Source of the DNA: Bacteroidia bacterium
GTDB taxonomy: Bacteria; Bacteroidota; Bacteroidia; AKYH767-A; 2013-40CM-41-45
Assembly: GCA_035341855.1 (NCBI GenBank)
Contig: DAOQWA010000002.1
Coordinates: 17,189 to 81,188 of the forward strand
Direction of reading: 5' to 3'
DNA: 64,000 bases
The notes below the pieces were generated by a model. It was given only the letters and a program-made list of their open reading frames with translations. It made no database searches and was not told the origin of the DNA. Of this stretch, positions 47,204 through 58,276 are shown piece after piece. The translations under genes and the position numbers were made by a program. Each line of letters opens with the position of its first letter. The stretch's first letter is position 1.

Positions 47204-47319
47204 TTTTTAGTTTGTTTTGATGGTTTTTTGGTGATATTTAGGTGAGTTATAGGGTACAAAGTTATAAATTCAAGCGTTTTACCTGAGTTTTTCTTAAAAT
47301 GTTATTGACAATCTGACGT

Positions 47320-54879: not shown

Positions 54880-54941
54880 CGCCGGTTTTTTATCTCTGAT
54901 TTTAATTGCATAAATATCCGAAATAAAGGATTAGGTTGATC

Positions 54942-54985
54942 CAAAAAAAAATCGAACCAGGCACAAGGACCGGTTCGATTTTTTA
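54942..54985 (-). terminator. rho-independent terminator downstream of clpB
   Basis: ATCGAACC...GGTTCGAT 8-bp stem with flanking A8 on the + strand (U-run on the clpB transcript). Confidence 0.6.
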
Positions 54986-55050
54986 TATTTCATCAGGTTT
55001 TACTTGACCACCATGGCCTTAGTAAGGAGAAGTACAATTTTACACCGACG

Positions 55051-57663
55051 TTAAACTTCTACTTCAGATTCAACATTTGTAAAGACGAACTCCTTATTTT
55101 TATCAATATCGAGTTTGATATGATCATTGTTTCTCACCTTGCCGCTCAGGATCTGTTTAGATAATTCGTTTAACAGTTTTTTCTGCATCACCCTCTTTAA
55201 TGGTCTGGCTCCAAACTGAGGATCAAAACCAAGTTGTGCAATCCAATCGATAGCCTCGTCGCTGGCTGAAATGCTAAAACCATTAGCTTTCAGCATAGTT
55301 TGTACATGTTTGAATTGCAATTCGACAATTTCTCTGACTTCTTCCCTTGTCAAAGGCTGGAACATGATGATCTCGTCGATCCTATTCAGAAACTCAGGCC
55401 TTATGGTCTTACGCAATAGATCGTAAACCTGAGCTTTGGCTTTGGCAACAACTGATTCACGATTTAATTCGGTCATGTCTTCAAAGCTATCCTGGATCAA
55501 ATGCGATCCTATATTGGAAGTCATTATGATAATAGTATTTTTAAAATTAGCTGTTCGTCCCTTATTATCAGTAAGTCTTCCATCATCCAATACTTGTAAC
55601 AGAATGTTGAATACATCAGGATGCGCTTTCTCAATTTCATCCAGTAAAATTACAGAGTACGGACGTCTTCTTACAGCTTCAGTAAGTTGCCCGCCTTCAT
55701 CATATCCTACGTATCCTGGAGGGGCTCCAATCAGCCTTGACACTGCATGTCGCTCCTGATACTCACTCATGTCAATGCGGGTCAGTGCATTTTCATCATT
55801 AAATAGAAATTCTGCTAAAGCTTTCGCCAATTCAGTCTTACCTACACCAGTTGTTCCAAGAAAAATAAATGAACCAATTGGTTTGCGTGCATCCTGTAAC
55901 CCGGCCCGACTTCTTCTTACAGCATCACTCAAGGCTGCAATTGCATCGGATTGTCCAACAACACGCTTATGTAATTCTTGTTCAAGATGTAATAGTTTTT
56001 CTCTTTCACTTTGTAGCATTCTGCTAACCGGTATACCGGTCCAACGAGACACCACTTCTGCGATATCTTCTGCATCCACTTCTTCCTTAATCAGGGCTTT
56101 GTCATTTTGTATTTCAGATAACTTCTTTTCCAATTCTAAAAGCTTGGTTTCAGATTCACGAACCCTACCATATCTTATCTCTGCAACTTTCCCATAATCT
56201 CCGGCCCGTTCAGCTTGTTCAGCTTCAATCTTTAAGTTCTCCAGAAATTCTTTGATATTTTGAATCCCCTGAACAATCTCTTTTTCAGATTCCCACTTGG
56301 CTCTGATCTGACTTCTTTGTTCATTCAGATTTGCTATCTCTTCATTTAGTTCAGCCAGCTTTTTTTCGTCCTTTTCCCTCTTGATTGCTTCTCGCTCAAT
56401 CTCCAGTTGCATAATACGGCGATTCATCTCGTCAAGTTCCTCAGGTACAGAATCGATTTCCATCCGGAGCTTCGACGCTGCTTCATCCATAAGATCAATA
56501 GCCTTGTCGGGTAAAAAACGATCAGATATATAGCGTTCACTTAATTCAACAGCGGAAATAATGGCCTCATCCTTAATCCTTACTTTATGATGGGTTTCAT
56601 ACTTTTCCTTTAGTCCTCGTAAAATTGATATCGCGTCTTCTGTACTCGGTTCTTCAACAACAACTTTTTGAAATCTTCTTTCCAGAGCCTTATCTTTTTC
56701 AATATATTTCTGGTATTCACCAAGAGTCGTTGCGCCAATTGCACGAAGCTCACCTCTCGCTAATGCCGGTTTAAGTATGTTTGCTGCATCCATGGCACCT
56801 TCGCCGGCACCTGCTCCAACAAGAGTATGGATCTCATCAATAAATAATACAATATCTCCATCTGCACTTATTACCTCTTTAATAACCGCTTTTAATCGCT
56901 CTTCAAACTCACCTTTGTATTTGGCTCCTGCTATCAATGCGCCCATATCAAGAGAATAAACCAGCTTGGATTTCAAATTCTCAGGGACATCACCATCAAT
57001 AATCCGGTGAGCGAGTCCTTCAGCGATAGCTGTCTTTCCTACACCGGGTTCACCAATAAGTATTGGATTGTTCTTCGTTCTACGTGAAAGTATTTGCAAT
57101 ACACGTCTAATTTCTTCATCCCGACCAATAACCGGGTCGAGCTTACCTTGCCGGGCAAGTTCATTCAAATTTCTTGCATACTTGGAAAGTGAATTATACG
57201 ATTCTTCAGCACTGGCACTGGTGACTTTTGATCCCTTACGCAATTCCCCGATTGAAGCTTTTACTTCTTTTTCATTTAGACCTTCATTTCTAAGTAGGGT
57301 ACCTGTCTTATCTTTTGATGATAAAATTGAAAGAAGGAGATGCTCAAGAGCTACGAATTCATCACCAAGATCCTTAGCCAGATTTAAAGCTTTCTGAATA
57401 ATTTTGTTTGAATCATCACTGAGATAAATTCGACCGCCGCTTACTTTGGGATAGGCTTGAATGATAGTGTCAAGTTGGGTCAGGATTTTATCTTCGCTTA
57501 CGTTGACTTTTTTGAATATAAAAGGAATAACATTCTCATCTACCTGTAACATCCCTTTCAAAATGTGAGCAGGTTCAATAGATTGTTGTCCCAGACTCTC
57601 AGCGTACTGCTGTGCCTGCTGAATAGCCTCCTGTGATTTTATTGTGAATTTATTAAAGTCCAT
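55051..57663 (-). CDS. clpB: ATP-dependent chaperone ClpB
   Basis: 870 aa, two AAA+ modules ([17 protein letters not shown]), a long middle coiled-coil and a Clp N-domain. Confidence 0.95.
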
Positions 57664-57759
57664 TTGAATAGATATTTATGTTTTCACACAGCATATCAAT
57701 TAACCTTCCATACTGAAAAAAATAACCAATTCCGTACATTTTGACATAAAACTGTTTTA

Positions 57760-57790
57760 TTCTTTGTCACTTTGACGTAGTGACAAAGAA
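57760..57790. promoter_or_regulatory. perfect 12-bp inverted repeat TTCTTTGTCACT-N7-AGTGACAAAGAA (candidate operator) in the divergent clpB promoter region
   Basis: Palindrome read directly from the sequence. Lies between the clpB start (57663, minus strand) and the 57869 plus-strand gene. Confidence 0.4.
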
Positions 57791-57843
57791 AAGTATGGCA
57801 CATTAACATGATATAAAACATCTTTATTGTAAATCATTCTCCA

Positions 57844-57851
57844 TAAATTTG
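57844..57851 (+). promoter_or_regulatory. Bacteroidetes -7 box (TAAATTTG) for the 57869 gene
   Basis: TAnnTTTG match 17 nt upstream of the ATG. Confidence 0.35.
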
Positions 57852-57868
57852 TAGATAAACTTAAAACT

Positions 57869-58276
57869 ATGGACATCAAATTCGATAAAAGCACAAAGCT
57901 TTCAAAGTTACAAACGGATTTTCAACAGCGATTCAATTTTCTAAAAATTGAATTTTTTCGTGAAAAATCTGAGCCGAATGCTCAATACACAGCGAAGGAT
58001 ATTCTTCCCAATACACATAGTATAGGCGAAGTATCGTCAGGTTTGGAAGCAGAACCGTTGCACATTGGTGGTGGGATGAAGGTGAGAGATGTAGAGAAAG
58101 ATTTTTCTGAAAAGCTTGGACTGTACGTACAAATTTTTCGGAAATCAGGAAAGGTCTGGCTAATTACTTCTTCAACAGACCACCTTACCTTAGATCAACT
58201 CGACAAAGAAGCCAAGGCAAAGGAAACACAACCGGACACAAATTCGGAGACAATTGACTACCACGAACAAGAATAA
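57869..58276 (+). CDS. hypothetical protein
   Basis: 135-aa ORF with a -7 box upstream. No recognised domain. Confidence 0.5.
   Translation: MDIKFDKSTKLSKLQTDFQQRFNFLKIEFFREKSEPNAQYTAKDILPNTHSIGEVSSGLEAEPLHIGGGMKVRDVEKDFSEKLGLYVQIFRKSGKVWLITSSTDHLTLDQLDKEAKAKETQPDTNSETIDYHEQE

Follow-up and report, generated by a model that had tools for sequence, protein, structure and literature searches.

A palindrome upstream of clpB in a Bacteroidia bacterium overlaps a conserved, helix-phased dyad beside a putative sigma-54-type promoter

The gene clpB of an uncultured Bacteroidia bacterium, represented by a metagenome-assembled genome, lies, together with a divergently transcribed gene for a 135-residue protein (the 135-aa gene), in a stretch of 64,000 nucleotides (64 kb) of contig DAOQWA010000002.1, hereafter called the window. 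The intergenic region of the two genes contains a perfect inverted repeat that an earlier reading of the sequence (the original prediction) had put forward as a heat-shock operator. We find that this palindrome overlaps the distal of two 11-bp dyads (GWCA-WWW-TGWC) that are in helical phase with a -24/-12 element upstream of clpB. The dyads and the element are conserved, keep a regular spacing and phasing, and recur at other chaperone genes. On balance, we consider it probable that the two dyads control a sigma-54-type promoter of clpB and that they are binding sites of an enhancer-binding activator. From the arrangement of these elements we infer the use of sigma-54, activation over repression and the kind of protein that binds.

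The inverted repeat TTCTTTGTCACT-TTGACGT-AGTGACAAAGAA occupies positions 57760-57790 (arms 57760-57771 and 57779-57790) and pairs at 12 of 12 positions across a 7-nt spacer, exactly as the original prediction described it. The distances given there are also correct: with respect to the ATG of clpB (57663, minus strand) the palindrome is 97-127 nt upstream, and with respect to TAAATTTG, the -7 box of the 135-aa gene, 54-84 nt upstream. Its axis (57775) is at about -91 from the predicted clpB start site. The palindrome is the sole match to itself in the window at up to three mismatches (0 of 100 shuffled sequences matched), and every further spacer-containing perfect inverted repeat of 12 nt or more is of the terminator type (A-run, stem, T-run). 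Since an independent metagenome contig (L008) has exactly the same sequence throughout the intergenic region, the palindrome is not an assembly artefact. Neither the half-site TTGTCACT nor the full palindrome repeats beyond chance elsewhere in the 64-kb window.

Footprinting of the clpB upstream region gave a different conserved unit from the one originally proposed. Ten distinct orthologous loci (L005, L010, L006, L007, L001, L002, L003, L004, L012 and L019) were fetched via a graded series of homologues of the 135-aa protein; clpB and the 135-aa gene are divergent in each. The 12-N7-12 palindrome is absent from all ten aligned intergenic regions. L005 lacks it although the N-terminal 200 residues of its ClpB are 90% identical to those of the window and its 135-aa protein is 87% identical; both arms differ at many positions, with the length unchanged. 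At the place of the palindrome all ten relatives keep an 11-bp core, which corresponds to the left arm plus the spacer and has its axis at 57771. The core reads GTCAAATTGAC in L005 and L002, and in L002 (where CAGGTCAAATTGACCTG is an example of it) it is extended to a perfect CAGGTCAA-A-TTGACCTG. It reads GACAGATTGAC, GACAGTTTGAC and GACAGAATGAC among L010, L006, L007 and L001, GACAAATTGTC in L004 and L012, and GACAAAATGTC in L019. A second copy of the motif, TACAWWTTGWC, is kept in the close relatives about 31 bp nearer to clpB (57735-57745 in the window), and a further block, TGGnnnGTTnnTTGAT, is conserved on the clpB strand (window 57710-57695). What is conserved in front of clpB is thus not the palindrome but the 11-bp dyad within it, and we take this distal dyad to be the conserved and presumably functional core of the palindrome.

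clpB itself (55051-57663, minus strand, 870 aa) was assigned by Pfam and by NCBIfam (TIGR03346, 1316 bits against a cut-off of 1232). Upstream of it lies a sigma-54-type -24/-12 element, TGGAAGGTTAATTGAT (57710-57695, minus strand), with its GG at 57709/57708 and its TTG at 57699-57697; the -12 base is A and not the canonical C. The TGG is 47 nt from the ATG. With GG taken as -25/-24, transcription is predicted to start near 57684, which leaves a leader of ∼ 21 nt. No TAnnTTTG box, the -7 part of the Bacteroidetes housekeeping promoter (-33 TTTG, -7 TAnnTTTG), was found on the minus strand between 57664 and 57868. The element was followed in 80 clpB loci (ClpB 66-74% identical) that were among the matches listed by a scan of a genome collection and that belong to Flavobacteriales, Bacteroidales, Sphingobacteriales, Cytophagales, Chitinophagales and Marinilabiliales. 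In 65 of the 80 upstream regions the sense strand carries TGG-N8-TTG no further than 200 nt from the ATG, as against 2-11 regions for the other spacings (N4-N12) and 7 for the antisense strand. Loci without it mostly carry one-base variants (AGG, CGG, GGG) or have archaeal labels. The logo of these promoters, TGG(T/A/C)A...TTG followed by A (67%) or C (15%), fits TGGCAC-N5-TTGC except for the A at -12; position -22 is A in 71% of them, as in the canonical TGGCAC. The 8-nt geometry of TGG and TTG upstream of clpB points to a sigma-54-type promoter, presumably one that uses sigma-54. In a computational survey, sigma-54 promoters were enriched at the genes for GroEL/ES, DnaK/J, GrpE, IbpA, HtpG and COG0542 (Clp ATPases) in Bacteroidota and Planctomycetota (PMC12316311).

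Both dyads of the window lie upstream of this element. The distal dyad, GTCACTTTGAC (clpB sense GTCAAAGTGAC; 57766-57776, centre 57771), is a perfect match to GWCA-N3-TGWC; counted from the T of TGG its centre is at -61, and counted from the predicted start site at ∼ -87. The proximal dyad, TACATTTTGAC (clpB sense GTCAAAATGTA; 57735-57745, centre 57740), matches at 7 of the 8 specified bases and is centred at -30 from the T of TGG, ∼ -56 from the start site. The two are 31 bp apart, i.e. three helical turns. An extra dyad-like copy, GACGTAGTGAC (57774-57784, 7/8), is made by the right arm of the palindrome; it overlaps the distal dyad and, centred at -69, is off the 10.5-bp phase.

The phasing is not particular to the window. 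When 75 clpB upstream regions were anchored on TGG and every 11-mer was scored against GWCA-N3-TGWC, 51 perfect dyads were found up to 100 nt upstream of TGG, all of them on six rungs (-19, -30, -41, -51, -61 and -72). They are distributed as 19 at -18 to -20, 4 at -29/-30, 1 at -41, 4 at -50/-51, 19 at -59 to -62 and 4 at -70 to -73, and the 7/8 matches concentrate at the same rungs. Position -61, that of the distal dyad in the window, is one of two modal positions (14 perfect and 9 seven-of-eight dyads). The Rayleigh resultant of the dyad positions is 0.93 at 10.5 bp versus 0.08 at 12 bp, and the background rate of a perfect dyad is 8.9e-5 per nt (1.04 Mb of fetched sequence). Of 883 TGG-N8-TTG sites from all loci, 84 are accompanied by a dyad that matches at 7/8 or better in phase, versus 9 at equally many off-phase positions. 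Dyads that occur as pairs upstream of clpB are 31 or 42 bp (three or four helical turns) apart, typically at -19/-61 in Flavobacteriaceae, -19/-51 in Bacteroides rodentium and -30/-61 in the clade of the window. Relative to the promoter, and not merely to each other, both sites keep a fixed helical face. None of the dyads reaches into the -24/-12 element or the predicted start site, and the pattern extends over six orders. The search put no constraint on the three bases at the centre; ∼ 97% of these are A/T, and the dyad has symmetric flanks (c-w-GWCAWWWTGWC-w-g). This A/T centre and the symmetric flanks argue for a genuine protein-binding motif.

The combination of dyad and promoter is also found at other chaperone genes. 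A strict scan covered both strands of 167 loci and the window (∼ 1.1 Mb), with gene identities taken from Pfam; to count, a site had to combine TGG-N8-TTG with in-phase dyads, either a single perfect one or two that match at 7/8 or better. It gave 57 sites, of which 53 are at clpB, one is at dnaK, one at hsp20 and two adjoin no open reading frame (ORF). The dnaK site (L144, Chitinophagaceae) has a perfect GTCAGATTGTC at -19, and the hsp20 site (L109) is upstream of the gene in a member of the Flavobacteriaceae. Three further dnaK loci were fetched, from Cytophaga, Sporocytophaga and Chondrinema (dnaK loci in all: L144, L168, L169 and L170), and these have dyads or dyad-like sites at -19, -22 and -30. 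Chondrinema carries a perfect GACATAATGTC at -19 from the promoter TGGCATAACCATTGA and Cytophaga GCCAATATGTC at -30 from the promoter TGGCACAGCTATTGC; in Sporocytophaga the promoter is present and the dyad copies are degenerate. The dnaK promoters of Cytophagales are nearer to the canon than those of clpB and include the canonical TTGC (TGGCACAGCTATTGC). Sampling for the regulon covered clpB, dnaK and hsp20; there is no other chaperone gene among the annotated ORFs of the window. We suggest that the module of dyad and promoter marks a heat-shock regulon and is not a peculiarity of clpB. The original prediction was thus right to place a heat-shock cis-element here, in so far as a dyad is conserved upstream of clpB, both in the ten close relatives and in the majority of the 80 diverse Bacteroidota genomes, and recurs at dnaK and hsp20, but the conserved unit and its axis differ from the 12-N7-12 palindrome that was proposed.

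These data are consistent with a model where a dimeric DNA-binding regulator occupies both dyads (∼ -56 and ∼ -87) on one face of the helix and from there controls whether the sigma-54 holoenzyme forms an open complex at TGGAAGGTTAATTGAT. This regulator would most likely be a sigma-54 enhancer-binding activator with a Fis-type helix-turn-helix (HTH), a domain carried by enhancer-binding proteins of the NtrC type, and the dyads would then be an enhancer (upstream activator sequence, UAS) and not a repressor operator. The same module would drive clpB across Bacteroidota, as well as dnaK and hsp20, and the 12-N7-12 symmetry of the window would be a species-specific local elaboration that adds a third, out-of-phase half-site. 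We favour an activator because sigma-54 promoters require one, because the dyads never overlap the promoter, because both dyads hold the same face towards the promoter and not just towards each other, and because the core GWCA-N3-TGWC equals that of the RegA boxes defined by chromatin immunoprecipitation (ChIP), although the latter is a resemblance only. A fixed face without promoter overlap would be expected of an activator that contacts the holoenzyme, not of a repressor that occludes the promoter. Like known UAS, the sites are dyad-symmetric, conserved and paired on the same face upstream of the promoter (-30 and -61 in the window). The word 'operator' in the original prediction implies repression, whereas this context, a sigma-54-type promoter preceded by sites in phase at a distance of one to six helical turns, points to an upstream activator site.

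Several observations weigh against this model. The GC doublet is nearly invariant in characterised sigma-54 promoters, and a conserved C at -12 is not seen at clpB, where A prevails. This deviation is systematic across the phylum and may therefore reflect lineage-specific recognition. Classical enhancers lie at -80 to -150, further from the promoter than the sites at ∼ -45 to -56. The distal dyad of the window has G/C in its centre (AAG/CTT), which is rare among the dyads. No gene for an activator with the GAFTGA motif was found in the 167 fetched loci, neither rpoN nor activator genes are present in any fetched locus, and the annotated ORFs of the window include no rpoN, activator or other regulator gene. 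Support for the regulon beyond clpB comes from five loci, and the sampled genomes are related, so the counts of dyads and promoters are not independent events. In addition, many sigma-54 activators of Bacteroidetes have been reported to lack a DNA-binding (enhancer-binding) domain (PMC3372290), so that the dyads could be bound by a separate protein, perhaps a repressor, from which promoter specificity would come.

Such a repressor was implied by the 'operator' of the original prediction. The dyads would be operators that follow the logic of HrcA/CIRCE or HspR/HAIR and are released when proteins unfold; the bound protein would block a DNA-independent sigma-54 activator beside the -24/-12 promoter, or loop the DNA between the dyads. 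Most characterised palindromes at bacterial chaperone genes are indeed repressor operators. The proximal site (-45 to -56) abuts the holoenzyme footprint, and sites 31 or 42 bp apart suit looping. The response regulator RprY of Porphyromonas gingivalis binds the clpB, groES and dnaK promoters (PMC3646045) and behaves as a repressor (PMC3646045, PMC5706477), which counts against an activator here. A repressor is nevertheless not needed, since sigma-54 promoters are silent without their activator; the dyads stay clear of the -24/-12 element as well as of the predicted start site, and the strict helical phase of both sites to the promoter is the signature of an activator. We therefore regard repression through the dyads as unlikely, though it deserves to be taken seriously.

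The full 31-bp palindrome could also be a separate, lineage-specific site that merely overlaps the conserved dyad, such as an operator for another regulator, e.g. of the divergent 135-aa gene, from whose predicted start site it lies at about -70 to -100. Alternatively, it could be neutral and owe its symmetry to template switching, by which one arm was copied over the other; the many differences between its arms and L005, with no change in length, are compatible with a single conversion event. Twelve perfect pairs cannot be chance, and the axis of the palindrome (57775) differs from that of the dyad (57771). However, it is confined to one species, and the two contigs that carry it are identical, so that they give no evidence of selection. 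The dyad explains everything that is conserved in the region, and the window holds no second copy of the palindrome. A separate origin or role of the palindrome thus seems quite improbable to us. Still less credible, to the point of being nearly negligible, is an RNA hairpin in a leader, the alternative that the original prediction had named for itself (here as a thermometer or an attenuator), or a terminator. The predicted fold is stable (-15.1 kcal/mol, z-score -4.6 versus shuffles), but good RNA folding is trivial for any perfect DNA palindrome. The palindrome is upstream of both predicted start sites (∼ 57684 for clpB and ∼ 57858 for the 135-aa gene), its stem is AT-rich and not followed by a T-run, no terminator was called at the site, no Rfam family matched it at E up to 1, and no such hairpin is conserved in any aligned relative.

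The preferred arrangement, an activator on two phased dyads, can be compared with known systems. In glnAp2 two NtrC dyads lie about three helical turns apart, and NifA sites have the form TGT-N10-ACA. Sigma-54 promoters with upstream NtrC or NifA sites share with the clpB promoter the -24 GG, the -12 TTG and their exact spacing, as well as two upstream dyads on one helical face (here 31 or 42 bp apart). The clpB promoter differs from them in that the -12 base is mostly A and not C, the sites are closer (∼ -45/-56 and -87), the dyad sequence is another one, the genes belong to a heat-shock regulon and the activator is putative. The boxes of the response regulators RegA/PrrA/ActR (GCGWCA-N3-TGWCGC) have a core, GWCA-N3-TGWC, that is identical to that of the dyads, a likeness of sequence only. 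ChIP-defined RegA sites include GTGACAATTTGTCCC, GCGTCAAAGTGTCCA and CGGACAAAATGTCGC, and RegA has a Fis-type HTH (PMC5359404). The RegA system belongs to Alphaproteobacteria, its sites have GC-rich flanks where those of the dyads are A/T-rich (c-w/w-g), and RegA is a redox regulator that acts on sigma-70 promoters.

The operators CIRCE (HrcA), HAIR (HspR) and the CtsR box also precede chaperone genes, clpB among them, and consist of inverted or repeated sequences; HAIR has a 7-nt spacer, as does the palindrome. These operators overlap sigma-70-type promoters and repress, whereas the dyads lie upstream of a -24/-12 promoter. The statement in the original prediction that the palindrome is not CIRCE holds: TTAGCACTC-N9-GAGTGCTAA has no match in the window at up to three mismatches. 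HAIR (CTTGAGT-N7-ACTCAAG) does not match at the palindrome, and its sole match at three mismatches in the window, in the clpB coding region (56380), is below chance. No CtsR box (RGTCAAA-NAN-RGTCAAA) is present in the intergenic region; eight occur elsewhere in the window at three mismatches versus 12 expected. Relatives such as L002 do have the half-site GGTCAAA, but in inverted orientation and not as the direct repeat of the CtsR box. OmpR-type regulators, presumably including RprY, usually bind direct repeats. RprY is the only regulator that we found with experimental binding to Bacteroidota chaperone promoters, and it was reported without a motif (PMC3646045).

The divergent 135-aa gene (57869-58276, plus strand) belongs to an uncharacterized family and shares its intergenic region with clpB. 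Its promoter is of the housekeeping-sigma kind and not of the -24/-12 kind, with the Bacteroidetes-type -7 box TAAATTTG at 57844-57851 (plus strand); the box is conserved as TAAATTTG or TAAATTCG in L005, L006, L010 and L001 and differs in L007. Between the palindrome and this promoter a block ATGGCACATTAACATGA (core ACATGAC; 57795-57811, plus strand) is conserved in close relatives, ∼ 30 nt from the distal dyad. It was considered as a plus-strand sigma-54 promoter of the 135-aa gene and rejected, since L010 and L006 have lost the GG and the spacing does not fit. The protein has no Pfam or NCBIfam match. A library at 50% identity holds 1,934 representatives of the family (E up to 0.001), which is marked by an invariant FRKSGKVWL motif and a C-terminal DYHEQE tail. 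In an AlphaFold model (predicted local distance difference test, pLDDT, 77) the protein consists of two beta-alpha-beta units plus a helix; it contains no HTH and has no significant fold match in the PDB. Genes for homologues adjoin clpB in the close clade and elsewhere hsp20 or a DnaJ/CbpA-like gene; homologues away from clpB are without the dyad-promoter module. Where hsp20 is the neighbour, two flanking ORFs of ∼ 270 aa presumably encode universal stress proteins (usp). A role of the 135-aa protein as the regulator was discarded, given the missing HTH, the missing family match and the absence of the module at homologues away from clpB. Its gene neighbourhoods suggest an uncharacterized protein of stress- or chaperone-associated clusters. 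In two distant lineages (L046, ∼ 1880-1940, and L074, ∼ 1420-1480) the stretch that separates hsp20 from the gene for the 135-aa homologue contains a common motif, GAT(G/A)AGGATCAGTTT(T)G(C/G)..C.GAG.CGC, which may be another kind of regulatory site for stress genes.

Further observations concern clpB and the dyads elsewhere. In L001-L004 a dienelactone hydrolase gene lies between clpB and a RecQ-type helicase gene; the window has none at this place (54880-55050). The complete archaeal genome of Methanospirillum stamsii Pt1 (L100, NZ_CP176366.1, 2518212-2528797) encodes a ClpB 71% identical to that of the window, with neither the -24/-12 element nor dyads upstream of the gene, and may have acquired it by horizontal transfer from Bacteroidota. 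Three metagenome-assembled genomes labelled Burkholderiales, Kuenenia and Bifidobacteriaceae (L088, L141 and L164) have a Bacteroidota-type clpB together with the promoter and a dyad, and these look like mis-binned contigs. In Salegentibacter (L166, 3058-3632) a gene for a monothiol bacilliredoxin (BrxC/YtxJ) is divergent from clpB and has two dyads in common with it. It has its own TGG-N8-TTG on the opposite strand (TGGAAAAATTTTTGA), 4 bp off the usual phase, and the dyad module may be used in both directions there. The dyad pattern occurs twice in the window, versus 2.25 expected. The match other than the distal dyad, GTCAGATTGTC at 47307-47317 (minus strand), precedes a 190-aa ORF by ∼ 105 nt and has no -24/-12 element beside it. 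This ORF probably encodes a signal peptide and has an ordinary TAacTTTG -7 box.

In the window itself, the functional part of the striking palindrome would be limited to the left half and the spacer. Earlier published work consists of predicted sigma-54 promoters at chaperone genes of Bacteroidota and of one regulator, RprY, without a motif. For phased GWCA-WWW-TGWC dyads we found no description in the searchable literature, where only the sigma-54 survey (PMC12316311) and the unrelated RegA sites came up, although further databases may hold one. A defined 11-bp dyad with a fixed phasing to the promoter makes heat-shock control in the phylum directly testable: it can serve as bait for the regulator, as a query for genome scans that define the regulon, and as a target for phase-shift and point mutants. 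A possible use would be as a compact heat-inducible promoter module for the engineering of Bacteroides or Flavobacterium. How chaperones are induced in Bacteroidota, a phylum that includes dominant gut, oral, soil and marine bacteria and that to our knowledge lacks sigma-32, is poorly understood. We tentatively propose, at a little less than an even chance, that a single, undescribed module runs the core heat-shock regulon of the phylum (clpB, dnaK, hsp20 and probably more) without sigma-32. It would consist of a sigma-54 promoter with a relaxed -12 region (TTGA) and one to three dyads, bound by an enhancer-binding protein with a Fis-type HTH from unusually close and strictly helix-phased positions (-45/-56 and -87). 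If this is true, heat-shock control in bacteria would have a third major logic in addition to sigma-32 and the HrcA, HspR and CtsR repressors.

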